From: Vairimorpha necatrix
Lineage: Eukaryota
Direction of reading: 5' to 3'
Length of the DNA stretch: 64,000 nt
NCBI GenBank assembly: GCA_036630325.1
Contig: CP142737.1
Coordinates: forward strand, 868,001-932,000
In this document: positions 5,300 to 48,577 of the stretch, piece after piece
Layout: the number at the start of each line of letters is the position of its first letter
How positions within the stretch are numbered: the first letter of the stretch is position 1
The notes under the pieces: generated by a model
Seen by the model: the letters and a program-made list of their open reading frames with translations, nothing else
Told to the model about the DNA's origin: nothing
Databases searched by the model: none
Made by a program: the position numbers and the translations under genes

Positions 5300-5906
5300 A
5301 TAAAGCAAAAAATTTTACACATCAAAAATATATTTTTTTATTTAAAAATGTTAAATTTAGTTTCTCTATTGAATTTTTACACATCAAAAATATATAATTT
5401 AGTTTCTACATTAATTTTTTCAAATAATATTAAACTTTCTGTATACGCTAAATGAGACATGATAAACTTATTATAAAAATTACCAATATGTTTCTAGCCA
5501 TAATTTTTTTTATTATTATAACAATTATATTCATTATTTAGTTGTAATTAAAAAATATAAAAAGATATAATTGGCACTTTAAATACCAAATGTTTCTTTT
5601 TTTCATCATATTTTCGTAGGATATCTAATATTTATTTGTTTTAAACTTTTTTCAAAACACATATAATATATTTGAATCAGCAAATTCAGGCTTACATAAA
5701 TTTACATGAACGCATAGAATTTTTCCATTCAAATCGCAGTAATGTCATTTTAAATTTAAATATCGAAAATATTAGAGTTGATTTAATGCAAAGAGTATTT
5801 GCAACAAAACTTATAATAAAATTCTTTTATATATGAGATAGTATAAGTAATTTAATATTCGAACATTATAAAATTACAAAATTTTTATTAATATCAAATT
5901 ATTTTA

Positions 5907-11693: not shown

Positions 11694-12763
11694 GGCTAAA
11701 ATCAGCTTTAGTGTAAAAAAACTGGGGGGGTCAAAATTTTTAAAAAATTGCCCCTTTTTTTAAAAAACGAAGGGAATGCTGAGTAAAGAAGAAATTGAAG
11801 ATTTTTATGAACATCTGCTAAGAAAGAAATATAAACAGAAATGTTCAATTTGTGGCTGGGATACATCTAGAGTATCTAACGAAACATTTTATTTGAGATG
11901 TAAATTTCCCAAATGCGGCCAAAGATTTTCAATTTGGAATAATACTCTATTTTCAAATAGTAAGATAGATCATATTCTTATGCTGAAAATTGTAAATCTA
12001 TGGACAATGGGACTTAAAATAGCGCATATTTCTAAAATTTTGGACTGTAATATGCAAAATGTAAGTGCTACACTTGAGAAATTATATAAATTAAAAATTT
12101 ATGAAAAATATATAAATAAAACAAAACAAATAGGAGGCGAAAATATCATAGTGGAGATCGACGAAAGTAAAATAGGTAAGAATAAATACCACAGGGGAAA
12201 ATTAGTTAAAGGATTTTGGTGTTTTGGGATGGTAGAAAGAACAACAGAAAAGAAGATAATATTTGTCATAATAAATAAAAGAAACAAGGATACATTGCTG
12301 CCGATCTTATTTAAGCATGTAAATTTGAAATCTATCATTCATTCCGATATGTGGAAGGCCTATATAACGTTAAAAAGCCATTACGCGGACCATAGAACTG
12401 TAAATCACAGTCAAACATTTAGAGACAGAGAGACAGGTGTGCATACAAACACCATCGAAGGAAATTGGAGGTCTTTAAAAGCCTCTATACCCAATAGGTG
12501 TAGAACATATGAATTTGCTGAAATATATTTAGTTCTATATATGATTAAAAGAAATGAGAGCGAAGACATCTTCAAAGCATTATTAAAATTATGTTTTTGA
12601 TATATTTTATTTATTTTAAAGTTAATTTTCATGCATTTTTATATCTTAATTATATTTTATTTTTTTTCTGAAGTTTTCTCTTCCCTTCGTTTTTTAAAAA
12701 AAGGGGCAATTTTTTAAAAATTTTGACCCCCCCAGTTTTTTTACACTAAAGCTGATTTTAGCC
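11694..12763 (+). mobile_element. Intact Merlin (IS1595/ISXO2-like) DNA transposon
   Basis: 83-bp TIRs (11694-11776 and 12681-12763) with GG...CC termini; 8-bp TSD GAGATAAA at 11686-11693 and 12764-12771. Confidence 0.95.
11776..12600 (+). CDS. Merlin/IS1595-family DDE transposase
   Basis: Zn ribbon CSIC...CKFPKC; VEIDES, IHSDMWKAY and VHTNTIEGNW motifs; open frame of 274 aa. Confidence 0.95.
   Translation: MLSKEEIEDFYEHLLRKKYKQKCSICGWDTSRVSNETFYLRCKFPKCGQRFSIWNNTLFSNSKIDHILMLKIVNLWTMGLKIAHISKILDCNMQNVSATLEKLYKLKIYEKYINKTKQIGGENIIVEIDESKIGKNKYHRGKLVKGFWCFGMVERTTEKKIIFVIINKRNKDTLLPILFKHVNLKSIIHSDMWKAYITLKSHYADHRTVNHSQTFRDRETGVHTNTIEGNWRSLKASIPNRCRTYEFAEIYLVLYMIKRNESEDIFKALLKLCF

Positions 12764-15992: not shown

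Positions 15993-16022
<30 letters not shown>
15993..16022 (+). repeat. (TCA)10 microsatellite at the 5' boundary of the Helitron array
   Basis: Ten TCA units; the last one is the Helitron 5' TCA. Confidence 0.95.
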
Positions 16023-16023
<1 letters not shown>

Positions 16024-19000
16024 ATATATAAAAGAATTTTATTTAATTTTTTACCCCTAAAACTCAAAAAAAGAGAAAATTTAAAATGATAAAATTTTTG
16101 TTTTAAAACAAAATTAAATGCTTTCACTGTATTTTATAGACAATTTTAGATCAGATACGTTATTTACATTTTATTTATAAATCATTTTCGAAATGCTTAG
16201 AAATATGATTTTCTCCTTTTTAATTTCTTCCTTTTAGAGAATGAAAACAAAAATAATATGAAACAAAATGTAGAAAAAATTTGTTACTAATGTGTGAAAT
16301 TAACTCAATTGGATTAAAATTTGTTACTGAATTAACTTTACCACTGCTATGTTGATTCAATAATAATACTTAACTTCTAAAAATCACATTTGCTCCTTTT
16401 TAATTCTTCCTACCAGAAATGGAAAATCAAAAATCAAAACAAGAAACAAACATTAAAAAGATGATTTACAAACATTAGAAATTTATCAACTGAATAACAA
16501 ACTCAATTAATTTTTATTTAGACTAATATCAATTCTATTTATTAAAAAATCATAGTCTCATTTTTGTTTTCTTCTTTCCCAAAATGGAATTTCAAAAACT
16601 ATAAATACTTTTTTTTTCTTTACCCCCATTATGTTTACGAAAAATCAAACAAATTGCGATTTTAGTGAACAACCAAAAGCAACTATCACTATCTCTCAGG
16701 AGATAAGTTATAATACAGAAAATGACAATGTTATTTTCTATGGGGCCAATGCCTCTGTACATAACACAAAAAATAAAAAAACAAATGTCGGAGAAACAAA
16801 AAAAAGGAATTTTATATTCAGTTTCTCTGGCGAAAACAAAATACCATCCAACCCAACAAACAACACAGAAAAAACAGCTAGATTAACTGATAACACAAAT
16901 ATGGAAACTTTGACGGAGATTCTAGATATAGCTTGCAGAAAAAGAAAGAGAAACCATGCCGAACATTATTGTGGAGATCTCAAAGAAGAATGTGGCTTTT
17001 GTGGTGCATTACATTTTGCAGGAGAAGCAAGCAGTAATGGATTATACAAAAGCTGCTGTCATTTTGGGAAAGTTAAATTACAAAGAACAAGAGACTTTCC
17101 AGATGACATAAGGAATTTATTCATTGGAAAAGATAAAGATGCAAAAAACTTCAGAGAAAATATTAGATCTTACAATGCTGCTCTTTCTTTTGCTTCTCTT
17201 GGTGCTCAAATTGAGTCCATAAGTAATGGACCATATGTTTTTAAAATACATGGTCAAGTGTATCATAACACTTATAATGTAAATAATATGGACTCTAATG
17301 CACCAAAGAAGTATGCTCAATTATATGTAGTAGATAGTGATATGGCCAATGCTCAAAGAATGATGAATCTATCTAACAGAAATTGTGATATTAATATCAT
17401 GAGCAAATTAGATGGATTCATAAGATCAGCAAACCCATATTCCGATGCATACAAGAATATGTCTGAAGTAATAAAGGAGCAAAAGGAGATGGGAAAAGAA
17501 GTTAAAGACATTTCTATGGTCTTTAATAAGAATTTAGATAGAGATCAGAGAAGGTATAATGCTCCCTCTACAAGTGAAATCGCAATGATTTTTACTGATC
17601 CAAATGGAGAACCACCATTTGAAAGGGACATTAAAGTATATAGCAAGGGTCTTAATTCTGATAATTTACACTTGGATATTTTAAGTCCCCATCTAGATCC
17701 AATGACATATACTCTCTTCTATCCACACGGGGAAGCTGGATGGAATGCAAATTTGAGGGCCGAATCTTATCATGGAGAGGCACAGAAGATATCTTTGTTA
17801 CAATACAAAGTAGCACAGATATCCATAAGAAATGATAGATTCAACCCTTTGCTTTATGGAGGAAAGTTATTTCAACAATGGATTGTAGATTCATATCTAC
17901 AAGTAGAAGCAAATAATTTAAACTTCATAAAATCAAATCAAAAGAAGTTGAGGGTAGATCTTTACAAAGGTTTGGTAGATTATGTAAATAATGGGTCAGA
18001 AAGTTCTGCCAAGCCCGTGATCTTACCATCAAGTTTTCAAGGATCTCCAAGAAATATGAGAGAGAGATACCATGATGCAATGTCAATTGTAAGAAATTTC
18101 GGCAAGCCCGATCTTTTTATAACTATGACTTGCAATCCCAAATGGAAGGAGATTAATGAGAATCTATTTGAGGGACAGACAGCAGTTGATAGACCAGATT
18201 TGGTAGCAAAGGTCTTTAACTTAAAGTTGAAAAGTATGATGGAAGAGATTTTGGCAGGAAGAGTGTTTGGGGAAGTCGTGGCTCATGTCTATTCTATTGA
18301 GTTTCAAAAACGTGGACTTCCTCATGCACATATATTGATAATGTTAAAGGACAAGATTCGGGATGAAAATATGATAGATAAGTTTGTAAGTGCAGAAATA
18401 CCATCGCCCATGGAAAATGAAGTGTTACACGCCTGTGTAACAAAACATATGATTCATGGACCATGTGGACTAAGTAACTTGACAAGTCCATGTATGGAAA
18501 ATGGTCTCTGCACTAAGGAATATCCTAAGGAACATAATACTGAAACAAGGATCAATAAAGACGGATATCCTGAGTACAGACGATCTAGAGGGGCCGAGTA
18601 CAATGTAAGGGGCAACATTGTTACTAATGCTAACGTGGTCCCTTATAATGCTTATCTACTTGAAAAATACAATTGTCATATCAATGTAGAAGTTTGTACT
18701 TCTATCAAGTCAGTAAAGTATATTTTCAAATATATTTACAAGGGATTTGATTGTGCTGAAATGAGAATAACTGACAACAATGAAATTGATCATTTTGTGA
18801 ATTCCAGATATGTCTCAGCACCAGAGGCTACCTGGAGATTAATGGAATACAAGATGCATGGAAGATCTCATAAGATCCATAGACTTCCTGTGCATCTTCC
18901 ACAAGAACAATTGATCACTTTCGAAGAAGGCAGAGAAGAGGAAGCCGTTAGATTGTCCGATCTTAGACAGACTCCTCTTTTAGCCTACTTCAAATTGAAT

Positions 19001-21144
19001 GAAGTTGATGAAGGAGCACATCGATTTTCGTATAGTGAGATACCCTATCACTATACATATAAAAGGGGAGAATGGATTAGTAGAAAGAATAAGTATAGTA
19101 AGATAATTACTAGACTTTATTCTGTATCTCCAATAGAGAAGGAAAGATTTAGCCTCAGAGTTCTATTGATCAATGTAAAGGGGGCTAAGTCATATGAGGA
19201 TTTGAGAACTGTAAATGGTGTAGTTTACAGTTCTTTCGCAGAGGCGGTGGAAGAAAGAGGACTTCTTCAAGATGATAAAGAATGGGAAAGGGCTTTGGAT
19301 GAGGCTGTATCAACCGAGTCCCCATCAATAATAAGAGCATTGTTTGGATATATTTGTGCTTTCAATGAGCCTAAAAATACCAAAGAACTCTTTGAGAAGT
19401 ATCTTGGAGATATGTCTGAAGATCTAGATCAGAATAGTAGAGACGAAATATTAAGTAGATTAAAAGATATAGTTAATGCTCATGGATGGAGCTTAAATGC
19501 TCTGGGTTTAGATGAGCCGATTAACTATATCAAGAATGAAAGAGCCGTCTTTGATAATGAACAAGATCTAGATCAGATGATATCCTCTTTGAATGAAAAC
19601 CAGAGAAATGCCTTTGATATAATTACAGATAATATAGATAAAAGAGGCAATTTATTCTTTTTAGATGGACCAGCTGGATCAGGAAAGACATATTTATATA
19701 ATGTCCTGATCGAGTATCTAAGTAAGAGTAAAAAATCTTCAATACAGATGGCAACCACAGGTATTGCTGCAGATTTATTAAAGGATGGAAGAACAATGCA
19801 TAGTTGTATGAAACTTCCTGTTCCTTTGACAGAGACCAGCGTATCTAGACTAAAGCAAAATACTCCAGAAGCAGAGAGAATAATAAAGGCCTCTTTATTG
19901 CTAATAGATGAAGTTTCGATGATGTCAAAACATGCATTGAACGCAATAGATGAGGTGCTTAAAAGACTCTGTGACAATGATGATATCTTTGGAGGGAAAA
20001 CTCTATTGTTGGGTGGTGACTTTAGACAGACATCAACCATTGTAATGAAGGGTACTCCAAATGATATCATCGAGAACTCATTAATTAGTTCAAGACTTTG
20101 GGTACATGTCTGTGTACTAAAGCTTGAAACGAACATGAGATCTTATAATCAATTGGAGTTTAATAAGTGGTTGTTAGATATAGGTGAGGGGCGTACTAGA
20201 GATAGTAAAGGATGTGTGGAGATACCCAAAGAATATCTTGAAGAAGGGGACATAGTCGATAGCATTTTTGGAACAATCAAAATTGAAGCAGGTGATGATT
20301 CTTTGTTTGATAAGATTATCTTAACGAGCAAAAATGAACATGCAAATGAATTGAATGCCAAAGTGTTAAACCTACTTAATGGATCTTCTAGGGTATATGT
20401 GAGTTCTGATGCTATAGAATCAGAGGATATCGAAGAACAACTGAGATTTCCTCTTGAGTTCTTGAACATGCAACAGCCATCAGGACTACCTCCACATAAG
20501 TTAATATTGAAGACAGGGGCAATAGTGATGTTGTTACGCAATATTGATCCTAAGAATGGATTATTAAATGGGACCAGATTGAAGATAAAAGGTCTTAAAG
20601 ATAATTACATCTTAGGTGAAATAATAACAGGAAGGGGAAGGGGCACCCTTGCTGTTATACCAAAGATAGACATGATGCCAAGTGACACTCTTCTTCCGTT
20701 TGTACTTAAAAGAAGACAGTTTCCTGTGGTATTGTCATATGCGATGACAATACATAAAGCACAGGGACAGTCTTTTGACAAAGTGGGAGTGTATTTGCCT
20801 GAGGATGTATTTTCTCATGGTCAATTATACGTAGCATTGTCAAGAGTGAAGAAGAGTGAAAACTTGAGAGTCAAGTTGGGGGGAAACGGGGGCAATGTCA
20901 AAAATGTAGTTCTACGTGAACTAATTGGCCCATAAGAGCCAAGAGATGGAGAAATGCGCCGTGAGCGTACAAGCACTATGCCATTTTTCTTCCAATAAGG
21001 ATGAGATAAAAGATGATAAAATGCGCCGTGAGCGTACAAAAACTATGCCATTTTTTTAAAGAATAAATATAATGTGAAAAAATTAAAACATGTAACCATG
21101 CAAACACAAACAACCCGTTCTCAGAACGGGTGTGCATACGCTAG
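16020..21144 (+). mobile_element. Autonomous Helitron copy 1
   Basis: 5' TCATATATATAAAAG; 3' hairpin cccgttctcagaacggg (21114-21130) and CTAG terminus (21141-21144); encodes RepHel. Confidence 0.95.
16631..20935 (+). CDS. Helitron RepHel (Zn finger, HUH Rep, PIF1-family helicase)
   Basis: CGFCGALHF..CCHFGKV; LFITMTCNP; EFQKRGLPHAHIL; KYIFKYIYKG; GPAGSGKT; IDEVSM; GDFRQ; TIHKAQGQS; HGQLYVALSRV. Confidence 0.97.
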   Translation: MFTKNQTNCDFSEQPKATITISQEISYNTENDNVIFYGANASVHNTKNKKTNVGETKKRNFIFSFSGENKIPSNPTNNTEKTARLTDNTNMETLTEILDIACRKRKRNHAEHYCGDLKEECGFCGALHFAGEASSNGLYKSCCHFGKVKLQRTRDFPDDIRNLFIGKDKDAKNFRENIRSYNAALSFASLGAQIESISNGPYVFKIHGQVYHNTYNVNNMDSNAPKKYAQLYVVDSDMANAQRMMNLSNRNCDINIMSKLDGFIRSANPYSDAYKNMSEVIKEQKEMGKEVKDISMVFNKNLDRDQRRYNAPSTSEIAMIFTDPNGEPPFERDIKVYSKGLNSDNLHLDILSPHLDPMTYTLFYPHGEAGWNANLRAESYHGEAQKISLLQYKVAQISIRNDRFNPLLYGGKLFQQWIVDSYLQVEANNLNFIKSNQKKLRVDLYKGLVDYVNNGSESSAKPVILPSSFQGSPRNMRERYHDAMSIVRNFGKPDLFITMTCNPKWKEINENLFEGQTAVDRPDLVAKVFNLKLKSMMEEILAGRVFGEVVAHVYSIEFQKRGLPHAHILIMLKDKIRDENMIDKFVSAEIPSPMENEVLHACVTKHMIHGPCGLSNLTSPCMENGLCTKEYPKEHNTETRINKDGYPEYRRSRGAEYNVRGNIVTNANVVPYNAYLLEKYNCHINVEVCTSIKSVKYIFKYIYKGFDCAEMRITDNNEIDHFVNSRYVSAPEATWRLMEYKMHGRSHKIHRLPVHLPQEQLITFEEGREEEAVRLSDLRQTPLLAYFKLNEVDEGAHRFSYSEIPYHYTYKRGEWISRKNKYSKIITRLYSVSPIEKERFSLRVLLINVKGAKSYEDLRTVNGVVYSSFAEAVEERGLLQDDKEWERALDEAVSTESPSIIRALFGYICAFNEPKNTKELFEKYLGDMSEDLDQNSRDEILSRLKDIVNAHGWSLNALGLDEPINYIKNERAVFDNEQDLDQMISSLNENQRNAFDIITDNIDKRGNLFFLDGPAGSGKTYLYNVLIEYLSKSKKSSIQMATTGIAADLLKDGRTMHSCMKLPVPLTETSVSRLKQNTPEAERIIKASLLLIDEVSMMSKHALNAIDEVLKRLCDNDDIFGGKTLLLGGDFRQTSTIVMKGTPNDIIENSLISSRLWVHVCVLKLETNMRSYNQLEFNKWLLDIGEGRTRDSKGCVEIPKEYLEEGDIVDSIFGTIKIEAGDDSLFDKIILTSKNEHANELNAKVLNLLNGSSRVYVSSDAIESEDIEEQLRFPLEFLNMQQPSGLPPHKLILKTGAIVMLLRNIDPKNGLLNGTRLKIKGLKDNYILGEIITGRGRGTLAVIPKIDMMPSDTLLPFVLKRRQFPVVLSYAMTIHKAQGQSFDKVGVYLPEDVFSHGQLYVALSRVKKSENLRVKLGGNGGNVKNVVLRELIGP

Positions 21145-24100
21145 TCATATATATAAAAGAATTTTATTTAATTTTTACCCCTAAAACTCAAAAAAAGAGA
21201 AAATTTAAAATGATATAATTTTTGTTTTAAAACAAAATTAAATGCTTTCACTGTATTTTATAGACAATTTTAGACCAGATACGTTATTTACATTTTATTT
21301 ATAAATCATTTTCGAAATGCTTAGAAATATGATTTTCTCCCTTTTAATTTCTTCCTTTTAGAAAAAGAAAACAAAAACAATATGAAACAAAATGTAGAAA
21401 AAATTGGTTGCTAATGTGTGAAATCAACTTAATTGAATTTATATTTGTTTCTGAATTAACTCTAAAACTGCAATGTCGGTTCAATAATATACTTAACTTC
21501 TAAAAATCACATTTGCTCCTTTTTAATTCTTCCTACCAGAAATGGAAAATCAAAAATCAAAAATCAAAACAAGAAACAAACACTAAAAAGATGATTTACA
21601 AACATTAGAAATTTATCAACTGAATAACAAACTCAATTAATTTTTATTTAGACTAATATCAATGCTATTTATTAAAAAATCATAGTCTCATTTTTGTTTT
21701 CTTCTTTCCCAAAATGGAATTTCAAAAACTATAAATAAATTTTTTTTCTTTACCCCTCATTATGTTTATGAAAAATCAAGCAAACAACGATTTGAATAAA
21801 CAACCCAAAGCAACTGTTACTATCTCTCAGGAGATATGTAGTAATACAGAAAATAACAATGTTATTTTCTATGAGGCCAACACCTCTGTATATAATCAAA
21901 AAAATAAAAAAACAAATGCTGGAGAAACAAAAAAAAGGAATTCTATATTCAGTTTCTCTAGCGACAACAAAACACCAAGCAAACCAATAAACAACAAAAA
22001 AGAATTAGATGACTTAAAAGATAACAGAATAATAGAAGCTCTTACGGAAAGATTAGATTTAGCATGTAGAATCACAAGCAGAAACCATGCTGAACATTAT
22101 TGTGGAGATCTGAAAGAAGAATGTGCCTTTTGTGGTGCATTACATTTTGCTGGAGAAGCAAGCAGCAATGGATTATACAAAAGCTGCTGTCATTTTGGGA
22201 AAGTTAAATTACAAAGAACAAGAGACTTCCCAGATGACATTAAGAATTTATATATAGGAAAAAATAAAGATGCAAAAAACTTCAGAGATAATATTAGATC
22301 CTACAATGCTGCTCTTTCTTTTGCTTCTCTTGGTGCTCAAATAGAAACTGTATCCAATGGACCGTATGTATTTAAAATACATGGTCAAGTGTATCATAAC
22401 ACTTATAATGTAAATAATATGGACTCTAATGCACCAAAGAAGTATGCTCAATTATATGTAGTAGATAGTGATATGGCAAATGTTCAAAGAATGATGAATC
22501 CATCTAATAGAAATTGTGATATATATATCATGAGCAAATTAGATGGATTTATAAGATCTGCCAATCCATATTCCAATGCATACAAGAATATGTCTGAAGT
22601 AATAAAGGAGCAAAAGGAGATGGGAAAAGAAGTTAAAGACATTTCTATGGTCTTTAATAAGAATTTAGAAAGAGATCAGAGAAGATATAATGCTCCCTCT
22701 ACAAGTGAAATCGCAATGATTTTTACTGATCCAAATGGTGAACCACCATTTGAAAGGGACATTAAAGTATATAGCAAGGGTCTTAGTTCTGATAATTTAC
22801 ATTTGGATATTTTAAGTCCACATTTAGATCCAATGACGTATACTTTGTTCTATCCACATGGCGAAGCTGGATGGAACGCAAATTTAAGGATTGAGTCTTA
22901 TCATGGGGAATCACAGAAGATATCTTTACTACAATATAAAGTAGCACAAATATCTATAAGAAAAGATAAGTTCAATCCTTTACTCTATGGAGGAAAGTTA
23001 TTTCAACAATGGATTGTAGATTCATATCTACAAGTCGAAGCAAATAACTTAAACTTCATAAAGTTAAATCAGAAGAAGTTGAGGGTAGATCTTTACAAAG
23101 GCTTAGTAGATTATGTGAACAATGGAATAGAAAGTAATGCTAAGCCTGTAATTTTACCATCAAGCTTCCAGGGATCTCCAAGAAATATGAGGGAAAGATA
23201 CCACGATGCAATGTCTATCGTAAGAAATTTCGGCAAGCCCGATCTTTTCATTACTATGACTTGCAATCCAAATTGGAAGGAGATAAAGGAGAATCTATTT
23301 GAGGGACAAACTGCAGTTGATAGGCCTGATTTGGTAGCAAAGGTCTTCAACTTGAAATTAAAAAGCATGATGGGGGAGATTTTGTCAGGAAGAGTATTTG
23401 GGGAAGTTGTGGCTCATGTCTATTCTATTGAGTTCCAAAAACGTGGACTTCCCCATGCTCACATATTGATAATGTTAAAGGATAAGATTCGGGATGAAGA
23501 AAGAATAGATAAGTTTGTAAGTGCAGAAATACCATCGCCCATGGAAAATGAAGTGTTACACACCTGTGTAACAAAACATATGATTCATGGACCATGTGGA
23601 CTAAATAACTTGACAAGTCCATGTATGGAAAATGGTCTCTGCACCAAGGAATATCCTAAGGAACATAATACTGAAACAAGGATCAATAAAGACGGATATC
23701 CTGAGTACAGACGATCTAGAGGGGCCGAGTACAATGTAAGGGGCAACATTGTTACTAATGCTAACGTGGTCCCTTATAATGCTTATCTACTTGAAAAATA
23801 CAATTGTCATATCAATGTAGAAGTTTGTACTTCTATCAAGTCAGTAAAGTATATTTTCAAGTATATTTACAAGGGATTTGATTGTGTTGAAATGAGAATA
23901 ACTGACAACAATGAAATTGATCATTTTGTGAATTCCAGATATGTCTCAGCACCAGAGGCTACCTGGAGATTAATGGAATACAAGATGCATGGAAGATCTC
24001 ATAAGATCCATAGACTTCCTGTGCATCTTCCACAAGAACAATTGATCACTTTCGAAGAAGGCAGAGAAGAGGAAGCCGTTAGATTGTCCGATCTTAGACA

Positions 24101-26275
24101 GACTCCTCTTTTAGCCTACTTCAAATTGAATGAAGTTGATGAAGGAGCACATCGATTTTCGTATAGTGAGATACCCTATCACTATACATATAAAAGGGGA
24201 GAATGGATTAGGAGAAAGAATAAGTATAGTAAGATAATTACTAGACTTTATTCTGTATCTCCTACAGAGAAGGAAAGATTTGGCCTCAGAGTCCTATTGA
24301 TTAATGTAAAGGGGGCTAAGTCATATGAGGATTTGAGAACTGTAAATGGTGTAGTTTACAGTTCTTTCGCAGAGGCGGTGGAAGAAAGAGGACTTCTTCA
24401 AGATGATAAAGAATGGGAAAGGGCTTTGGATGAGGCCGTATCGACCGAGTCCCCATCAATAATAAGAGCATTGTTTGGATATATTTGTGCTTTCAATAAG
24501 CCTAAAAATACCAAAGAACTCTTTGAGAAGTATCTTGGAGATATGTCTGAAGATCTAGATCAGAATAGTAGAGACGAAATATTAAGTAGATTAAAAGATA
24601 TAGTTAATGCTCATGGATGGAGCTTAAATGCTCTGGGTTTAGATGAGCCGATTAACTATATCAAGAATGAAAGAGCCGTCTCTGGCATTGAACATGATCT
24701 AGATCAGATGATATCCTCTTTGAACGAAAAACAGAGAAATGCATTTAATACAATAACAGATAGTATAGATGAAAAAGGCAATTTATTCTTTTTAGATGGA
24801 CCAGCTGGATCAGGAAAGACATATCTATACAATGTCCTGATTGAATATCTAAATAAGAATAAAAAATCTTCAATACAGATGGCCACTACAGGAATTGCTG
24901 CAGATCTATTAAAAGATGGAAGAACAATGCATAGTTGTATGAAACTTCCTGTTCCTTTGACAGAGACCAGCGTATCTAGACTAAAGCAAAATACTCCAGA
25001 AGCAGAGAGAATAATAAAGGCCTCTTTATTGCTAATAGATGAAGTTTCGATGATGTCAAAACATGCATTGAACGCAATAGATGAGGTGCTTAAAAGACTC
25101 TGTGACAATGATGATATCTTTGGAGGGAAAACTCTATTGTTGGGTGGTGACTTTAGACAGACATCAACCATTGTAATGAAGGGTACTCCAAATGATATCA
25201 TCGAAAACTCATTAATTAGTTCAAGACTTTGGGTACATGTCTGTGTACTAAAGCTTGAAACGAACATGAGATCATATAATCAATTGGAGTTTAATAAGTG
25301 GTTGTTAGATATAGGCGAGGGGCGTACTAGAGATAGTAAAGGATGTGTGGAGATACCCAAAGAATATCTTGAAGAAGGGGACATAGTCGATAGCATTTTT
25401 GGAACAATCAAAATTGAAGCAGGTGATGATTCTTTGTTTGATAAGATTATCTTAACGAGCAAAAATGAACATGCAAATGAATTGAATGCCAAAGTGTTAA
25501 ACCTACTTAATGGATCTTCTAGGGTATATGTGAGTTCTGATGCTATAGAATCAGAGGATATCGAAGAACAACTGAGATTTCCTCTTGAGTTCTTGAACAT
25601 GCAACAGCCATCAGGACTTCCCCCACATAAGTTAGTATTGAAGATAGGGGCAATAGTGATGTTGTTACGCAATATTGATCCTAAGAATGGATTATTAAAT
25701 GGGACCAGATTGAAGATAAAAGGTCTTAAAGATAATTACATCTTAGGTGAAATAATAACAGGAAGGGGAAGGGGCACCCTTGCTGTTATACCAAAGATAG
25801 ACATGATGCCAAGTGACACTCTTCTTCCGTTTGTACTTAAAAGAAGACAGTTTCCTGTGGTATTGTCATATGCGATGACAATACATAAAGCACAGGGACA
25901 GTCTTTTGACAAAGTGGGAGTGTATTTGCCTGAGGATGTATTTTCTCATGGTCAATTATACGTAGCTTTGTCAAGAGTGAAGAAGAGTGAAAACTTGAGA
26001 GTCAAGTTGGGGACAAGAGGAAGCAATACTAAAAATGTAGTTCTACGTGAACTAATTGGCCCATAAGAGCCAAGAGATGAAGAAATGCGCCGTGAGCGTA
26101 CAAGCACTATGCCATTTTTCTTCCAATAAGGATGAGATAAAAGATGATAAAATGCGCCGTGAGCGTACAAAAACTATGCCATTTTTTTAAAGAATAAATA
26201 TAATGTGATAAAATTAAAACATGTACCCATGCAAACACAAACAACCCGTTCTCAGAACGGGTGTGCATACGCTAG
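21145..26275 (+). mobile_element. Autonomous Helitron copy 2
   Basis: Begins TCA immediately after the CTAG of copy 1; same hairpin, CTAG at 26272-26275. Confidence 0.95.
21762..26066 (+). CDS. Helitron RepHel, second copy
   Basis: 1434 aa, all motifs as in copy 1. Confidence 0.97.
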   Translation: MFMKNQANNDLNKQPKATVTISQEICSNTENNNVIFYEANTSVYNQKNKKTNAGETKKRNSIFSFSSDNKTPSKPINNKKELDDLKDNRIIEALTERLDLACRITSRNHAEHYCGDLKEECAFCGALHFAGEASSNGLYKSCCHFGKVKLQRTRDFPDDIKNLYIGKNKDAKNFRDNIRSYNAALSFASLGAQIETVSNGPYVFKIHGQVYHNTYNVNNMDSNAPKKYAQLYVVDSDMANVQRMMNPSNRNCDIYIMSKLDGFIRSANPYSNAYKNMSEVIKEQKEMGKEVKDISMVFNKNLERDQRRYNAPSTSEIAMIFTDPNGEPPFERDIKVYSKGLSSDNLHLDILSPHLDPMTYTLFYPHGEAGWNANLRIESYHGESQKISLLQYKVAQISIRKDKFNPLLYGGKLFQQWIVDSYLQVEANNLNFIKLNQKKLRVDLYKGLVDYVNNGIESNAKPVILPSSFQGSPRNMRERYHDAMSIVRNFGKPDLFITMTCNPNWKEIKENLFEGQTAVDRPDLVAKVFNLKLKSMMGEILSGRVFGEVVAHVYSIEFQKRGLPHAHILIMLKDKIRDEERIDKFVSAEIPSPMENEVLHTCVTKHMIHGPCGLNNLTSPCMENGLCTKEYPKEHNTETRINKDGYPEYRRSRGAEYNVRGNIVTNANVVPYNAYLLEKYNCHINVEVCTSIKSVKYIFKYIYKGFDCVEMRITDNNEIDHFVNSRYVSAPEATWRLMEYKMHGRSHKIHRLPVHLPQEQLITFEEGREEEAVRLSDLRQTPLLAYFKLNEVDEGAHRFSYSEIPYHYTYKRGEWIRRKNKYSKIITRLYSVSPTEKERFGLRVLLINVKGAKSYEDLRTVNGVVYSSFAEAVEERGLLQDDKEWERALDEAVSTESPSIIRALFGYICAFNKPKNTKELFEKYLGDMSEDLDQNSRDEILSRLKDIVNAHGWSLNALGLDEPINYIKNERAVSGIEHDLDQMISSLNEKQRNAFNTITDSIDEKGNLFFLDGPAGSGKTYLYNVLIEYLNKNKKSSIQMATTGIAADLLKDGRTMHSCMKLPVPLTETSVSRLKQNTPEAERIIKASLLLIDEVSMMSKHALNAIDEVLKRLCDNDDIFGGKTLLLGGDFRQTSTIVMKGTPNDIIENSLISSRLWVHVCVLKLETNMRSYNQLEFNKWLLDIGEGRTRDSKGCVEIPKEYLEEGDIVDSIFGTIKIEAGDDSLFDKIILTSKNEHANELNAKVLNLLNGSSRVYVSSDAIESEDIEEQLRFPLEFLNMQQPSGLPPHKLVLKIGAIVMLLRNIDPKNGLLNGTRLKIKGLKDNYILGEIITGRGRGTLAVIPKIDMMPSDTLLPFVLKRRQFPVVLSYAMTIHKAQGQSFDKVGVYLPEDVFSHGQLYVALSRVKKSENLRVKLGTRGSNTKNVVLRELIGP

Positions 26276-26796
26276 TCATCATATATATAAAAGAATTTTA
26301 TTTAATTTTTTACCCCTCTTTTTAGTGATTTTGTAAAATCTAAACTTCTTATTATAGCTTTTTGTGTCATTGTAATATCAAATATAAACTCATTGAAGGA
26401 TTTTGACTATCATAGGCGCGTGTACTGTATGTTAATACATTTTTATTTTAATTCTTTGTTTTGTAAAACTCAGTTCCAAAATATCGTCAGAATCGTTTTT
26501 TAGAATTTATTTAACCCTTCACGAAAAATTGTAAAAACATCTGACAAATAAAGATTTTGAATATAAGTGTCAAAAAGTGAGCTTAGAAGTTCCCAAAATT
26601 ATCTCATTGAGATTATTAAATGTTTTAAAACAACATTACTCCTTATATGTTACTAAAAAGTTTTTTAAAAATCATGCTTTCTCCTTTTCAAATTCATTCA
26701 TTCCAAAATGGAAACGCAACAAAATTTACCGAGGAGGGACATATTATAAAACAAAACGATTTAAGCCCGTTTTCAAAACGGGAAAGCATACGCTAG
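26276..26796 (+). mobile_element. Non-autonomous Helitron NA1 (521 bp)
   Basis: 5' TCATCATATATATAAAAGAATTTTATTTAATTTTTTACCC; 3' cccgttttcaaaacggg-aaagcatacg-CTAG. Confidence 0.93.
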
Positions 26797-27318
26797 TCAT
26801 CATATATATAAAAGAATTTTATTTAATTTTTTACCCCTATTTTTTGTGATTTTTAAATTTCTAAACGGCCCTTTTGATATTTATTATGTTATTGTAATAT
26901 CAAATATAGATTTATTGCCTTAATCTGAATATTCTAAGTGTGTATGTTATTAGTTAATACTTTTTAATTTTGATTATTATTTTTGTAAAACTCAGTTCCA
27001 AAATATCGTCAGAATCGTTTTTTAGAATTTATTTAACCCTTCTAGAAAAAATCCACAAAAACATTAACCAAAAAAGATTTTGAATATAAGTGTCAAAAAT
27101 GAGCTTTAGGTGCTTTAAAATTATCTCATTGAGATTATTAAATGTTTTAAAACAACACTACTTTTTATATGTTACTAAAAAGTATTTTTCAAAATCATGT
27201 AAAAACTCTGTCAAATATAATCAGCCAAAAATGGATACTTTACAAAATTTACCGAGACGGGACATATTATAAAACAAACACATTTATCCCGTTTTCAAAA
27301 CGGGAAAGCATACGCTAG
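26797..27318 (+). mobile_element. Non-autonomous Helitron NA2 (522 bp)
   Basis: Same termini as NA1; followed by T27319, closing an A^T target with A15992. Confidence 0.93.
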
Positions 27319-28903
27319 TTATTATATAATATAATTTTAGTGCGTGTAGTATCATATATGTAAAAGATCAGTTAATTGAAAATATAAACAAGACTTATAC
27401 ATCTATTTCAAATATGTAATGTTTAAAAAAGAACAGTGCTAGTAATTTTCATTCTTTTTGCAGCTTATTCTGCGAAGAAGAATAAACTAAAATGGGGCCT
27501 ATACGCAGTACAGAAACATATGAAAAAACTAAGAGCAGATCTTCGTATTGTACAAGATAGACTCATATACAGAGGAAAATGAAGCAGTAAAGTAAACACT
27601 CTCGAGACTATAAGGTAAGGGAGTATGTAAAGCATACTAGCTACTTTACTTTAAAAAATAAATATTTTGTTAAATAGAATAAACTGATAGTTTATGCAAG
27701 AAATTTTCTGTATTTAAGCTTTTTTATGACGTGTAACAAACAAACAAACTCAAAAATATATTCATAAAAATTATTTTTAACATTTCAATATACATTAGTA
27801 TTTCTTACGCATAGTAAAATTTCAAAGTCTAAATTGTTAGGACAGAATTTTTCTCAGTTAAATCCTGCATAAGATTAAAAATATATAATCTTAAATTGGA
27901 TATTTTGCAATAATCAAGTGTTTGTGGATTATTTAAATATTTGTTTTATTTTGATGACATAGAGCACATGTATTGTGGTCTTTAAAAATTTTATAAAAAA
28001 CATCTAAATTTTTAGTCTATTAGTTAAAGCATCATAGAATGGGCTTATACTGATTTAATTGATCATTAAAATAAGACAAAATCATATATAAGAAAATGAA
28101 TCTACTATATAAAAACAGGAGCGTATGTACTAGAAAACAGAATCTTTATATTAAACCTTTAAAACATCTCACAAATATATAAAACGTTGATATTTGACAG
28201 CTTAATGTTCATCAAACACTCCATTAGTTAAAACATATATAAATTATACTAGTAAAATTTATTTCTATAAAAATTATTTATATTTGTCAGTTTTTTATGT
28301 CTATATTCAAATTTACCTTTTCTCTTTTTCTTTATAGGGGTAAGGAAAATAAAAAAAAGTTTTAAGAAATTAATTATGAGGCTTTAAGTCAACGGAAAAA
28401 GTAAAATTTTTTAAATTATCTGAAAATTTTGAATAAATAATAAATTTATTTTATTTTTGTTTATTAATATAAATCATTTTTTGACAGTTTTTTGAAGATG
28501 TGATTAACTTGATAGTCAAAATGTGACATCAACTCTGATTTTACAATCTTTTCGAAATGAAAAGAACTTTTCATATTATACTCTTTACCAATAATCATAA
28601 AAACAAAATTTTTTAGATAAAATGTCTGCACATGTTTAAATCTCTTAAAAAATTTCTATTTTGTCTTTTAGAAAATATCGTAAAATTTTAATTTTAATTA
28701 ATGTCAAATTTTGCATTTAATTAATTAAATATTTACAAAAAAAATAATTCTTCATATTTTTGTTCATAAAATAGTATTACTTACTTTTCATATTTACAAT
28801 ATTTTTTTTTGTTTTTGTTTATATTATTCACATATATTATAAATTATTATTGTTTACATTAACTTTTTTTTATTTAAATAAAAAAATTAATACCCAAACT
28901 AAT

Positions 28904-29326
28904 ATGAAAAAAATTCAAACAATTACAAAAAAAGAAAAATTATCTAAAAAAAATATTAAAGACAAAACATGTACACTAAAAGACAAAAGTAATCTACTCA
29001 AAAAAGAAAAATTATTTAAAAAAAATAATATACGTACTTATTTTTATGACGAGACTTTTAACAATATGAATAATAATATTCTTGATTATACAGTAAAAAA
29101 CTTTAATGCTGAAACTAGCAGAATACCAAGATGTAGTACGGGATTTGATAATAAAATTCCAGGATATTTTAATAGTTATTATGGAACATTGTTAAAAAAT
29201 ATAGAAGTTTTAGGTGATAAATATGATTATGATTTGTATAATAATTTTAAAGGGGAATGGTGTTATTTAAATGTGGTTAAAAAGAAAGAAAATGAGATGT
29301 ATTTGGACTTTTTTGAAAAAAAATAA
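28904..29326 (+). CDS. Hypothetical lysine-rich protein
   Basis: Within ORF 28850..29326; ATG 28904 follows a CCC motif; AATAAA overlaps the stop. Confidence 0.55.
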   Translation: MKKIQTITKKEKLSKKNIKDKTCTLKDKSNLLKKEKLFKKNNIRTYFYDETFNNMNNNILDYTVKNFNAETSRIPRCSTGFDNKIPGYFNSYYGTLLKNIEVLGDKYDYDLYNNFKGEWCYLNVVKKKENEMYLDFFEKK

Positions 29327-30427
29327 AAAAGTGTTTTGTTTAAGTATAATTTGTTTATTTTCGGTGACACGTTTGAAATGTTTTGTAAACAAACATTAGC
29401 TTTATTAAAGTTTATTATATACTTTTTAGGTTTTTATTTTAAAGTAAAAAGAAAAAATTTCGTTTGTTAAATTTATTATTTAGAACAATTATAAAGTCTT
29501 AATAACAATTAAAGTATATCTTGAGTTGTTAACTAGGATATTAAATTATATAATAAGAAAAATAGATAAAAAATACATAAAAATTTTACAATTACAAACA
29601 TATGTTATTAAAATTTGATAAACAAATGTAGTTATTTTGTTAAATGTAAGAAACAACAAGTTAATTAATATTTAACAAAACGTATCTCCAAAATAATATC
29701 AATAATCTACCTAATTTGTTCTAGGATTTATAAAATATAATTGATAAAATATGGATATATTAAAAACTGTATGTATCTTGTACATTAAAAATTTTATATT
29801 TATTTATCAGGATTTAATGTAAAAATAAAAGTTCTAGTTTAATTTTATAAACGACAATTTTGTTGATTCTCAGTAAAAAAAAAAGAGTTCTTATTTATGA
29901 ATCTGTTTTAAAACTTCATAAATTGAACATAATTGCTTAGGGTCGCTTTAATTAGTTTATTTTCCATTTTATTTCTCATACATTCAATCTGTAGGTTTTT
30001 TTCTTGCGGCCAAGAATTCTCAGCTAATGTGATAGTACTAATAATATAACCATATAACAGTATTAAATAAAATATTTCTTCATACTTTTGAATCATCAAA
30101 TGACAAAAAAATCGAAGCAACTAAAATTATCAAAATAAAAAATTCTAATCTCACAAATAATCTAGAATAAATAAATTTTTTTCTTGATAACTATAGAAAA
30201 ATGTTTTCTTTGAATAAGTAGTTTTTAACGAATGATAATATTGATTAAATAAAAAAATGCAATAAAAATATTGCCCTCGATGCTTTGAAAAAAGGTACAT
30301 TTCGTAGATTAAAAATATGAAAAGTTATTAAAAAAAATTTAATAATTACTATATAAATCATAAAATATCTCTCGTTTAATAGAAATGTGAAATCATTATT
30401 CAGAAGTATAAAAAATTTATGAAAATA

Positions 30428-30947
30428 CTAGCGTATGCTTTCCCGTTTTGAAAACGGGATCTAAATGTTTGTTTTATAATATGTACCTCCTTTATCTTTT
30501 TGTGAATTTTCATTTTTTGATGAATGAATTTGAAAAGGAAAAAACATGATTTTGGAAAATACTTTTTAGTAACATATAAGAAGTAAAGTTTAGCTAAAAA
30601 CATTTAATAACCTCAATGAGATAATTTTGGGAACTTCTAAGCTCATTTTTCGACACTTACATTCAATTTCTTCTTTTGTCAATTATTTTTGTGAATTTTT
30701 TCTAGAAGGGTTAAATAAATTCTAAAAAACGATTCTGACGATATTTTGGAACTGAGTTTTACAAAACAAAGAATTAAAATGGAAATGCATTAATATATAA
30801 TATATGCACTAATAATTATCAAATTAAAACATTAAATCTACATATGATATTATATTAACGTAAAAGGCTCAAAATGTATCGTTTAGAAATTTCAAAATCA
30901 CAAAAAAGAGGGGTAAAAAATTAAATAAAATTCTTTTATATATATGA
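30428..30947 (-). mobile_element. Non-autonomous Helitron NA4 (520 bp)
   Basis: Reverse-complement termini: ctagcgtatgctttcccgttttgaaaacggg ... cttttatatatatga. Confidence 0.93.
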
Positions 30948-31468
30948 CTAGCGTATGCTTTCCCGTTTTGAAAACGGGATCTAATTGTTTAGTTTTTTAA
31001 TATGTCCCTTTTCGGTAAATTTTGTTAAGTTTCCATTTTAGGATTATTAAATTCGACAAAGTGAAGACATGTTTATTAGAAATACTTTTTAGTGACATAG
31101 AAGAGGTAAAGAAGAGTTAAAACACTTATGAGTCTGATTGAAATAATTTTGGGGACTTTTAAGCTCAATTTTCGACACTTACATGTAAGATCTTTATTTG
31201 TCAGATCTTTTTACAATTTTTTCTAGAAGGGTTAAATAAATTCTAAAAAACGATTCTGACGATATTTTGGAACTGAGTTTAACAAAAATAATAATCAAAA
31301 TAAAAATGTATTAACTGATAACTTACACACTTAGAATAGTCAAAGTAAAGCAATAAATCTATATTTGATATTATAATAACTTAATAAGATCAAAATAAAT
31401 AGTTTAGAAATTTCAAAACCACAAAAAAGATGGGTAAAAAATTAAATAAAATTCTTTTATATATATGA
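30948..31468 (-). mobile_element. Non-autonomous Helitron NA3 (521 bp)
   Basis: Head-to-tail with NA4; the pair is flanked by A and T on the element strand. Confidence 0.93.
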
Positions 31469-31875
31469 TAGGACAAGTTGTTGTTTATCTTTGATACAGA
31501 AGATATCAAATGGCATTGCAAAGTTTCTCATTACAAAGTTGTCCAAAGGAGCACACAGATGCAGATAGAGAACCTGTCTTGTCAGCAAAGACTTCCACAG
31601 ACTTGTTTTTTCAATTTTTTTACCCCTTAGAATGAGAAGACAAGAAAATCAAAAAAAACTGTAACAAAGATATTGCATGTTAAACAAGTAGTTTATGTTT
31701 AAAAAGCAAGAATCATCTTGCGACAAGGGTTTATCAGATGTAAAACATGTTTAATATAATAATTAGAAAACTTAAAATAATATTTATACGAATTTTAGTT
31801 TAGATTCTAAAATAATTAAAAAAAACCAAAATATAAACATTACTATGTATATATAAAGGGTACAGACCTTTATTA

Positions 31876-38149: not shown

Positions 38150-39818
38150 TTTTTAAAATATAGTTTTTTCTCTCATTAATTATTTATTCAAAAGGAGTTC
38201 TACATATACCTATGCAAAAACAATAAACTTTATCCCTAATATAGAGTGATAATGTTATTAAATAATATTACAACTGAATAGTTAGTTTTATAATCTACTC
38301 TAACAAAAAAAATGAGTTTTTCGTATTTTTTCTAAATAATTTTAAAGAAAAAAAAATTATGTTTTAAGTATTTTTTTTTTCTTTAAACTATGAATAATAT
38401 TTGTATATTGGCGTGTTTACCGGGAAGTTTGCCTGTAGCAAGGAAGCATTCAATGATGCTAAGGTTTGGAGTGCCGTGAAAACCGGAGTTTAGATAGTTG
38501 GAAGAAAAATATTGGCTTATCTGAATTATAGAAGGAAGAGAGTTTGTAAGTGTTCAAGTGATGTATCATGTAGATGATATATTTTCTTTATTTATAGTTA
38601 GAGTAACCAATAGAAGCAAATGTGATATAACTAATCAATATAAGCTGCCCATCATTGATTGTTCCAGTGAAGAGCCTACGTTTTAGTTTTTATTAATAAA
38701 TTATAGAACATGTAGTATAATCCATTATACCACATATATCATAAATAGATATAAATTTAAGATTTTAAAATTCAATAAATAAGTATTAAAATTGTTTCAA
38801 ACTTTTTTACTATTTTTTGCAATTTTGATCAAAAGAAAATAAAATAAAAGGATACATGATCGTTTGGAACCCATATCGAAAATTTTAAATCACGGCCTAT
38901 AAGAAAATGAAAACATCGGTAAGAACAAAATTTGTTATATCTGATAAGTTTTTTTTAATATGAAAATAAATAAAAATTTAATGCAGAACCAGCGTGTGCT
39001 TACCCGTCCTGTAGCCAATATAAATGCGGCTATTCTCCTTGAGATAATACAAGATTATATATTGACTAGTTTTTTTTTGTGATCATTGATCAATGAAGAG
39101 CATATGATGCCGCATTAGACAAATTACAGGAATGGCGCACAGGATTAGAAATTACGCCGTCAATTTCGCAAACTTTAACGATCTCGAGACACAATACCAA
39201 ACAAATTAGGAGGGTTAAAAGGTTTCTCAAGGGAGATGTTTGGTCCAAACGTGAAATAAACCAGGGCGAACTCTATAAATACCTTTACAGTTTCTCTAGT
39301 CTTATCAAATAACAGAACAAAGTATAACTAATCCTTTTTATTATTCAAAACAAATTGCTAAGTCTCTTTTATAGAAATTTTTTTATTTTTCCCGATTTTA
39401 AAACTTCAATGAGGGTTCATTTTCTCAAGATGGGTTCAAGACGGTCATCTACTGACATCTACCGACTCAGAGCTATTATTGGTATCCCCCCCCAAGATAC
39501 CACCTTTGTCACAGTTAATTTTCATACAAATCTTAGCTGCCCATCTGCTGACTTGACACACTTTATGTTTCAAAACATCAAGAGCAGGGGTCGGCAACGA
39601 AGCGTCCGCGGGCGCAGGTGCGCCCGTTTTCATTTTTCACATTGAGAAAGAATTTTAAAAATTTAGTATTTCATTTTTTTAAATAAATTTGGTCAATTAC
39701 ATTTTTAATGCTAAATATTGGGAGTACATTATAAGGAGTTGATGTACTTTTAGTTAAGAAAAAAGACCTTTCAACAAAAATTTTCTTACATATGATGATT
39801 ATAACAATAAAATTATTT

Positions 39819-42450: not shown

Positions 42451-43083
42451 TGTATATTTTCTTAGTATTTCTCTACACGTAGTTAATTTTTTTTTATTTC
42501 TTCAGGATTTAATCGAAAACAAAATTTAAACCTCTTTTCAAAGTAATTATGAAGAAATTAGCTTCGCATTCTTGTCAAAACAATGTCTATTAAATCTATA
42601 TAAACCCATTAAATTTATTTTTTTTCGATTCTTTTAATCACTTGAGCAAACTCTTTTAAAAAAATTTAATTATAATTTTCGTTTTTATAGAAAAAATATA
42701 CTTGTTAAGGCATCTTTAAAAAAAATACTGAAAAAAATCATAATCGCATTATTCGCTACGAAATGTTTTTTAAAAAAATTTCTAGAGCATTTTTTTTTTA
42801 TTATCTTCAAGATTTTTTTAAGCTTAAGCCCGTTTTTTTGTTTTAGGATTTTGAAATTGCCCATTTCGAACTTTATTTCAAAAAGGTTGCCGACCCCTGA
42901 AGTAGATAGTAAAATAAAGAAATAAAAAATAAAAAAAATGAAAATATAATTTGTAAATTTTGCGTTATTATGTTGTTTAATTATAACATTTTTTTTTGAG
43001 ATTTTCTCCTTCTCGTTATGTTCGCTTCGAATTTCGAAAATCAGAAATATTTTTTAAAAATTGGTATTTATATATGTAAAAGA

Positions 43084-46640: not shown

Positions 46641-48577
46641 ATAATGCTTTCCCGTTTTGAAAAACGACATTGTTATGTTTTGTTTATTTAATATTTTTTT
46701 TGACAGAATAAAAGAACAAAAAACATTGTTCACCAAATTTGGTAACACTCTATACAATGACTTAGTTAGTTTAATGCATTAAGTTATAATCATATAAAAG
46801 AAAATAGTTGGCAAGTTTATTAAATGTTAACTCATTCTTTAGTGATAGAAATTACTTCGATTAGATACTATTCAAAATTTTAATATCATATTTATATTTT
46901 AAAGCAAATTCAAAAAATTATTTACTAAAATAGTTTTTACAATCAAATAATCAGTTAAAAGTTATTGCAAAATGAATTTTCGAGTGTATATTCTACTATC
47001 TTGTAATAATCAAACAAAGCCAATTTTATACCATCGATTTAAAGTCAAAATATCACAATTTTAGATATTATTAAAATATGTCAACAACAAAAATATAAAG
47101 AACTAATAAATTACCAAAAGAATACAAGAACCCAACGTAGGATCAATAAAAATGTAGAAAAATTTTTGTTTTTAAATCTTAATGGTAAAATATCAAATTA
47201 ACATCATATTTACATATACTAGAATAATAAATTAATCAATAGAACAAAAAAAATTACACTGATATCGAAAGCAAAAATGAAATAATATGTAACATATCTG
47301 ATTATAGATTTTAATCGTATGATGTAATAATAAAAATGAAATTAAACGAATTCTATTTCATAATAGACTACTATCACAAGTAGTTAACTATTTGTATCAA
47401 AAAAAAGTCATATAATTTAAATAAAATATTCTATAATTAACTTAAATCAATTGTATCAGATTATGAGAAAAAAACTAAGAATATTATGAGCCCATTTAGG
47501 CATACAATATTTCTAAATAAATTCCCTAAATAGAAAAAGACATTGCAAAGATAAATCTATACTTTTTTAAATAAACAAGAACTATGACTAAGAAAAACTT
47601 AATAAATTTTAGCATATTTGAAAGAAGAAGTGGTTTCGCTCAATGATTAAAACAACATATGATCGAATTACCAGCTCATACAAAAAAATTTTACTCAAAA
47701 GTATAAAAAATCAAGTGGGGGCTTTTTGACTCAATTAGATTCTTTTTTGTAAATTATAAGATTTAGACGTAGAAAATATATAAAATATAATTATATAACA
47801 AAAAATATAATTAATAGATTGGGTCTTCTATAAATTTAAATTGCGAACTTAAAGATGTTGGAATTTGTCAACTCTACTTACATTTTTAAAGTTTCGATTG
47901 CTTATCCACAGTATTAATTTAAATTGTCTATAAAATTTCATAAAAATCTTTATACAAAGAAATTGATTTTTAGCTGAAAACAAGGTAAATATTATTAAAA
48001 TCCATTAATAAAAAAAAATTTTAGAATTAAGGGGAATTATCCGTATTTTATATTTAAGATGAAAACATTTTTAAGAAAAATATAATAATGTTAATAAACA
48101 AAAAAATTTTTAATTCGTGATATTAAAGTATATCTATATCTAAAAAATGTGAAGTTTATGTTAAAGTGATAATAACTCTAATTAGTTTTTGAGTTCCAGA
48201 CACAAAAAAAGAAAATTATGTAAAATCATTACATAAGTTCTTTAAATTCAATTATATAAACTATACTCATCTCTTTAACTGTTTTCAAATATTTTTTCTA
48301 AGGAAGCCCAATAAAGAATGGAAAGAAACTAATAGTAAGTAAAATCATAAAGTAAAATATACTATAAGCATTTCTATAAATATAAATTTTTCTATCTACT
48401 CATTTACGCAATTTTTTTAACATGGAAAGTTATTTGATTACCTTAAGAAAAAAGAAAAGAAAAATTACTAAACTATTTTACTTAACAAATGGCAAGGAAA
48501 AGATTTGTTATGTTCTTCTAAATATAGAATTATATATCCACTACAAAAAGACAAATAATTTGGAGCTGGGATACTTA

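Follow-up and report, generated by a model that had tools for sequence, protein, structure and literature searches.

A 55-nt internal core kept like the termini in non-autonomous Helitrons of Vairimorpha necatrix, a candidate cis element

Experiments on Helitrons, as described in PMC4778049 and PMC5876387, have to date placed cis signals at the two ends of the element only. A conserved internal core is already known from a non-coding Helitron-related family, and promoter-bearing non-autonomous Helitrons are known from bats. The former is DINE-1/mini-me of Drosophila (PMC2374699), which is high-copy, has a 3' stem-loop, and contains an internal block that is conserved where the rest of the element is variable. 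The DINE-1 block was described as 33 bp, extended to about 90 bp, and its authors inferred a role in transposition for the conserved core. By the same account, that core lies in the 5' block A, is common to the proposed autonomous copies, and is conserved across 12 species; the DINE-1 elements have subterminal inverted repeats and lack TC/CTRR ends. In the bat case, the non-autonomous Helitron HelibatN3 spread a promoter (NUBPL) through the genome, and this promoter came with a captured host gene fragment containing an exon and a splice donor (PMC4778049).

For microsporidia, the main text of the N. (V.) ceranae genome paper (PMC2685015) described a dispersed repeat of about 700 bp that is non-coding, often tandem, present in at least two subtypes, and found on 250 contigs. 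The repeat contains a well-conserved candidate pol II promoter that is tied to no gene; its borders were described as unclear, and it was not recognized as a Helitron there. Genes of N. ceranae carry a purine-CCC-pyrimidine motif within about 15 nt of the start codon and after a T-rich lead, usually a T homopolymer, and a minority of them have a TATA-type box about 17–24 nt upstream (PMC2685015). In N. apis the hexamer ACCCTT is over-represented upstream of genes and is found there in 37% of them (PMC3726280). The texts of a paper on forty microsporidian genomes (PMC12558613) and of the YNPr genome paper (PMC5012567) give Helitron loads only. The Lep1 Helitrons of N. bombycis (PMC4038834) were considered and set aside, because they belong to a different, lepidopteran-type family with no bearing on the elements described here. 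In the article texts covered, no conserved central block is described for microsporidian Helitrons. The non-autonomous Helitrons of V. necatrix analyzed here contain such a block, and it differs from the known examples in its central position, its sharp borders, a conservation equal to that of the ends, and its absence from the helper element.

Helitrons of the window and their termini

The window, by which we mean the whole 64-kb stretch of V. necatrix DNA that was analyzed, has a G+C content of 28%. The UAP56/SUB2 helicase encoded in it shares 87% identity with its V. ceranae counterpart, 81% with that of V. bombi, and 75% with that of V. apis; by the first of these values, N. ceranae is a close relative of the host. 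Two autonomous and four non-autonomous (NA) Helitrons are present. Their positions, together with those of the core and of the terminal blocks of NA1, are as follows:

16020..21144, + strand: autonomous Helitron copy 1, with the RepHel ORF at 16631-20935 (1434 aa); core absent
21145..26275, + strand: autonomous Helitron copy 2, with the RepHel ORF at 21762-26066 (1434 aa); core absent
26279..26796, + strand: NA1, NA Helitron from 5' TC to CTAG 3', without a long ORF
26279..26316, + strand: 38-nt 5' terminal block of NA1, common to NA and autonomous copies
26466..26520, + strand: core in NA1, exact match; the invariant run at columns 201-255 of the four-copy alignment
26766..26796, + strand: 3' hairpin and CTAG terminus of NA1, identified by pattern match and fold
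26800..27318, + strand: NA2, NA Helitron with the 5' 38-mer and the 3' hairpin/CTAG
26988..27042, + strand: core in NA2, exact match
30428..30947, − strand: NA3, NA Helitron with the 5' 38-mer and the 3' hairpin/CTAG
30705..30759, − strand: core in NA3, exact match
30948..31468, − strand: NA4, NA Helitron with the 5' 38-mer (1 mismatch) and the 3' hairpin/CTAG
31226..31280, − strand: core in NA4, exact match

On the + strand, the interval 16020-27318 is occupied by four Helitrons placed head to tail (autonomous copies 1 and 2, NA1, and NA2); about 3.1 kb further on, NA4 and then NA3 lie head to tail on the − strand. The 38-nt 5' end gave six matches at up to three mismatches in the 64-kb window (0 expected), and the pattern of a 3' hairpin followed by CTAG gave six exact matches; in both searches there was one match per Helitron. 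All four NA units have 5' TC and 3' CTAG (CTRR-type) ends, and the 3' ends of NA and autonomous copies are near-identical. The NA 3' hairpin has a 7-bp stem located 11 nt before CTAG. When positions 26745-26800 were folded as DNA, the energy was −8.1 kcal/mol (z −2.89), and 2 of 200 shuffles were as good. The A/T insertion context was found at the three array ends bordering on host DNA: the base before the 5' TC of NA4 is A, and the base after CTAG is T in both NA2 and NA3; the inner junctions are element-to-element. Relatives of the RepHel protein, the best of them 55% identical, carry Helitron helicase-like and PIF1 domains (PF14214 and PF05970). All six elements are canonical Helitrons. The longest open frames of the NA units are 104 and 65 codons from stop to stop and none is common to the copies; the NA units are non-coding.

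The joints between elements are of two types. Autonomous copy 1 is joined to copy 2 directly, CTAG onto TC without a spacer, and the CTAG of NA4 directly adjoins the 5' TC of NA3; such direct CTAG-TC joints resemble the circle junctions described for Helraiser (PMC5876387). The second type, CTAG-TCA-TC, has a 3-nt TCA spacer and is found between autonomous copy 2 and NA1 (26276-26278) and between NA1 and NA2 (26797-26799).

Several other features were observed in the window. Just after the RepHel stop codon of each autonomous copy there are two 53-nt direct repeats spaced 67 nt apart (20936-21055 and 26067-26186), with a relatively G+C-rich center. Fragments resembling the NA 3' or 5' ends occur near 5806-5839, 42594-42716, and 46644-46694, and the 3' hairpin-CTAG pattern is matched on the − strand at 38988-39008 with three mismatches, which is possibly the 3' end of another Helitron family. 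At 55211-55476 there are four tandem units of 64–66 bp, each with a hairpin-like, G+C-rich segment whose start resembles the 3' hairpin of the Helitrons; read on the minus strand, each also has a T run and ACCCTTCT. The tandem may be a mini Helitron-derived satellite. A 274-aa ORF with an ISXO2-like (IS1595/Merlin-type) transposase domain at 11776-12600 is framed by perfect 83-nt inverted repeats (11694-11776 and 12681-12763), and the interval 11694-12763 appears to be an intact Merlin-type transposon.

Conservation of the core among NA copies

An initial annotation of this DNA had found by eye that 55 bp in the center of NA1 to NA4 appear identical while the flanks are diverged, and had not seen this core in the autonomous copies. 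Both observations were reproduced. The 55-nt string matched four times in the window at 0 mismatches, once in each NA unit of about 520 bp, and had no match in either RepHel copy. Mean pairwise identity among the NA units was 100% for the core, but 74.3% for the flank to its left and 76.2% for the one to its right. No further match was found in the window at up to three mismatches (0.00 expected, 100 shuffles), and none of the thirds of the core recurs in the rest of the 64 kb. In metagenome, prokaryote-genome, and viral contig collections, 24 nt taken from the core gave 0 matches, and the 31-nt NA 3' end gave 0 matches in metagenome contigs.

In the four-copy alignment, the longest invariant runs were 55 columns (the core), 37 columns (the 5' end), and 32 columns (the 3' hairpin plus CTAG); the next-longest was 10 columns. 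Shuffling of the 523 columns, 68% of which are invariant, gave a run of at least 55 in 0 of 20,000 trials, the longest being 46. The core begins at about position 189 of about 520, with its start 188–189 nt from the 5' TC and its end 276–278 nt before CTAG in all four copies. Because the core has an ordinary base composition (16 of its 55 nt are G or C), it is not a mutational cold spot by composition. An internal block far above the rest of the element in conservation, as in DINE-1, is thus found in the NA family; however, the core is central here and absent from both co-resident autonomous copies in the window, and the NA elements have canonical ends.

NA positions 1-446 gave a weak alignment with the autonomous 5' leader (61% identity), and the NA body therefore appears to consist of diverged leader sequence and a 3' end. 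Opposite the core, the leader is 53% identical to it, much the same as opposite its flanks (40% and 48%). The core is private to the NA family, whereas the termini are common to all six Helitrons. Because the autonomous copies have the same termini but lack the core, RepHel does not need it to move an element as such, which counts against the reading of the core that is preferred below.

Contigs of public sequencing runs (Logan) were placed at 80% likeness on positions 26217-26857, which comprise NA1 and a short flank on either side. The element was present in two runs, each from a different study: X1 with 424 contigs and X2 with 549. Runs X3 and X4 gave 0 contigs at 80% likeness to NA1, which does not by itself prove absence. 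When word depth was summed over contigs, a measure that under-counts the variable parts (short or diverged contigs are missed) and is therefore not a copy number, the bins at 26459-26524 had values of 5129/7167/2210 in X1, with 811 and 543 in the adjoining bins, and 142355/229884/136020 in X2, with 31648 and 16265 in the adjoining bins, and the core formed a peak of 8–25 times the adjacent bins. Both runs had three depth peaks, namely the 5' end, the core, and the 3' end running into the next 5' end. The bins of the 3' end and junction reached about 3700 in X1 and 373058/190924/108970 in X2, and the variable bins, subject to the same under-counting, had 146–900 in X1 and 7800–31600 in X2. Core words are common to far more copies than flank words, at a level with the termini. 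The first condition under which the initial annotation would have been refuted, a core no more conserved than its flanks in a larger set of copies, therefore does not hold: over the hundreds of contigs of X1 and X2, the core is still the best-kept internal part. A second, weaker conserved block at 26595-26627, seen also in NA2 and NA3, includes, in three of the four NA units, a perfect palindrome of 6 bp (ATCTCA T TGAGAT), and the depth of X2 is moderately raised there.

Among the 40 variants listed out of 117, none lay between 26459 and 26531; a minor insertion behind 26519 was present at 61/2132 in X1 and 5218/101010 in X2. Loose contig ends at both borders of the core read as more diverged NA flanks, not as foreign contexts. 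Three of the four listed contig joints, which represent deletion or rearranged forms, had one side at the edge of the core (26517, 26517, and 26479), and deletion forms tend to keep the core. The depths of variant-specific contigs in X1 were 5.7–8.6, from which we roughly estimate that the NA family probably has hundreds of copies. Depth was level across the 3'-to-5' junction in both runs, and both junction types, with the TCA spacer and direct, occurred in the runs; the 3-nt omission at 26797 that marks the direct junction was found at 811/3299 in X1. Given the level depth and the two junction types, members of the family seem normally to exist in head-to-tail arrays.

The four copies of the window also showed signs of exchange. 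At eight two-by-two sites just left of the core, NA1 groups with NA3, and at four such sites just right of the core it groups with NA4. The site patterns were clustered along the element, with 12 changes over 31 sites; as few changes were found in 1179 of 100,000 permutations. The NA copies are mosaics, with one pattern switch across the core. This switching means that the copies recombine, and its position fits crossovers in the longest identical tract. Recent gene conversion, which the initial annotation had named as an explanation that would refute it, thus keeps some probability, since the mosaic patterns show recombination at the core; however, recombination alone would not give the same sharp block in most copies.

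Structure, coding capacity, and promoter likeness of the core

The z values for folding of the core were +1.42 and +1.17 on the + strand and +0.64 and −0.04 on the − strand. On the + strand, 191 of 200 shuffles (75 nt) and 181 of 200 shuffles (55 nt) folded at least as well, and the − strand was average; the core was unfolded in comparison with the 3' hairpin used as a control (z −2.89). Strong secondary structure, as expected for a single-strand origin, was not found in the core on either strand. The RNA fold of a whole NA element was not notable (z −0.99). A search of 26000-31700 with Rfam 15 at E up to 10 produced seven matches, 0 of them on a core; the best was snoR09 at the junction 26772-26850, with 29 bits compared to a gathering score of 50. 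The core lies in no ORF common to the NA copies, and a 41-codon frame across it yielded no candidate for a homologous protein. The 65-codon frame had one match in 1.84 billion representatives (E 8.7e-07), which was rejected because it is an unrelated repetitive protein. The lack of a fold, of an Rfam match, and of a common ORF speaks against the core being a coding remnant or a structured origin or RNA. Of the functions proposed in the initial annotation, a second-strand origin and a small RNA are disfavored in their structured forms, since neither strand of the core folded better than shuffles and no Rfam family matched it.

The initial annotation had also noted that the core ends in a promoter-like motif. 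The 3' end of the core is AACCCTTC, which follows an AT-rich stretch and includes ACCCTT. The lead AGAATTTATTTA is followed by ACCCTTC, in agreement with the purine-CCC-pyrimidine form. Eleven of the 12 lead bases are A or T, but only six are T, fewer than in the gene-proximal sites listed. The motif precedes genes of the window too; however, whereas the microsporidian gene motif is followed by a start codon, the one in the core is not. Within 22 nt of it no ATG opens an ORF, no ORF lies downstream, and the first downstream ATG opens two codons. By eye, the 55 nt contain no TATA[AT]A[AT], and the NA 5' end has one. The promoter-like part is the last 20 nt or so of the core, and the motif leaves the other 35 nt or so unexplained.

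The hexamer ACCCTT occurs 33 times in the window, compared to 22 expected, and 2 of 100 shuffles reached 33. Of 162 RCCCY sites, 12 are followed within 22 nt by the ATG of an ORF of at least 100 aa, and the other 150 precede no long ORF. Inspection by eye of the 17 listed ORFs of at least 150 aa found CCC (in one case GGG) within about 25 nt upstream of the ATG in nine; two of these nine are the RepHel copies, and two of the other eight are antisense within RepHel. The part of the promoter claim that stands is therefore the presence of ACCCTT; the core has no TATA box and no start codon, and the hexamer is near its chance frequency. Judged by its motifs, the core has a promoter likeness that is real but weak.

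The 38-nt 5' end has TATA-type heptamers and, about 27 nt on, a T run and ACCCC, with an RCCCY site at 26312; on these motifs, the 5' end of the Helitrons is a better promoter look-alike than the core. The RepHel start codon is located about 610 nt downstream of the 5' end and has its own T run and ACCCC just before the ATG. A pol III-type internal promoter with the T6 run in the core was also considered and rejected, because the likeness to the box motifs was poor and the upstream flank was variable by eye.

Possible functions of the core

The core is probably kept by selection of some kind. The claim that it is an internal cis element under selection is favored by its being invariant, NA-specific, and the best-kept internal part, and recent gene conversion is a less likely alternative to it. 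Because the NA copies encode nothing, selection can act only through their own propagation, and a block kept like the termini in non-coding copies most likely serves that propagation. A core that is linear and unstructured is most naturally read as a putative protein-binding site. We therefore infer selection for propagation, protein binding, promoter activity, and a link to RepHel access, and tentatively regard the core as a candidate compact promoter-type or factor-landing cis element for NA propagation. In this proposal the core would be an internal cis element of the NA family, and copies that lost it would multiply less well. It would be read as linear sequence by a protein, not as folded DNA or RNA, and would be a host-type transcription-initiation or factor-landing site that leads from the AT-rich stretch into ACCCTT and is oriented like the element itself. 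By holding the element open or transcribed, a site of this kind would expose single strands to RepHel. We prefer an initiation or landing site because of the motif, its orientation, the precedent in N. ceranae, and the cleavage of only single-stranded DNA by Helraiser; the Helraiser transposase, a relative of RepHel, was reported to cleave ssDNA but not dsDNA (PMC4778049). The core would resemble HelibatN3 in spreading a promoter within an NA Helitron, except that the NA body here appears to come from the Helitron leader and its promoter activity is putative.

A site for transposase or a host factor that acts without transcription is nearly as likely as the promoter-type mechanism. The core would then be a transposition enhancer, an extra putative landing site for RepHel or a host protein, with which NA copies would compete for the transposase that the autonomous copies supply; taken by itself we hold this to be somewhat doubtful. 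The conservation evidence is the same for both readings, the enhancer also agrees with a linear, unstructured core, and no other reading accounts better for the full 55 nt. A core that is NA-specific, with termini shared with the autonomous copies, is what would be expected of a parasite-of-parasite trait, and internal sequences tune some MITEs for hyperactive transposition. By eye, the 3' part of the core (AGAATTT-ATTTAA-CCCT) resembles the 5' subterminal stretch (AGAATTTTATTTAA...ACCCCT), although this likeness is short and AT-rich. We know of no Helitron that requires an internal site, which counts against an enhancer. So does the finding that the determinants of Helraiser cleavage in vitro lie within the terminal 40 nt (PMC4778049). 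A bolder form of the argument, in which Helitron mobilization would have in the core a first internal cis requirement, private to NA copies, that would either let these copies outcompete the helper for RepHel or prime duplex conversion, is in our judgment rather unlikely.

Three further explanations, homogenization, a complementary-strand origin, and a captured piece, are less likely than the promoter-type or enhancer readings. The core might have no function and have been homogenized by recombination or gene conversion, or be unchanged from recent recombinant master copies, its sharp look resulting from crossovers concentrated in the longest identical stretch. The mosaic copies, with a grouping that switches across the core, are in keeping with this. 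It is nevertheless unlikely, because flanks of only 74–76% identity up to the block need a long divergence, yet the 55 nt are exact in 4/4 copies; the block is the depth peak in both runs, which come from different studies, and there matches the termini, which are certainly functional; unconstrained conversion tracts should not have both borders in common across most copies; and the ordinary composition gives no compositional cold spot. That the core is the complementary-strand origin, or priming site, of the excised single-stranded circle, the function that the initial annotation put first, is improbable. Known single-strand origins of rolling-circle replicons are strongly folded and the core is not, and the autonomous copies would need such an origin too, yet lack the core. 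On the other side, the transferred (+) strand is less folded than 191 of 200 shuffles, a possible open entry site, and Helitron circles become double-stranded in cells by a route described as unknown (PMC5876387). Very improbable, finally, is an origin of the core by capture from a host gene or non-coding RNA, or a role as source or target of small RNA, even though Helitrons capture host promoters and gene pieces, e.g., the NUBPL promoter in HelibatN3 (PMC4778049). The core has no Rfam match at E up to 10, no sub-block elsewhere in the 64 kb, no stable fold, and no ORF, and the weak alignment of the NA body with the autonomous leader (61%; 53% in the core) gives it the look of diverged leader.

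The 55 internal bases, kept like the ends in a non-coding family, are a sharply bounded candidate for an extra signal. The core may also account for the promoter-like repeat that was noted in 2009, without an explanation, in N. ceranae, a parasite of bees, and that may be the same kind of element; the two were compared by description only, and the likeness is a lead, not a result. The NA repeat family is likely missed by standard tools, and the combination of 5' end, core, and 3' hairpin/CTAG provides a practical annotation signature for Vairimorpha genomes. If an NA-private cis requirement is true, the ends of Helitrons would not be the whole cis signal, and non-autonomous families would evolve propagation devices of their own.
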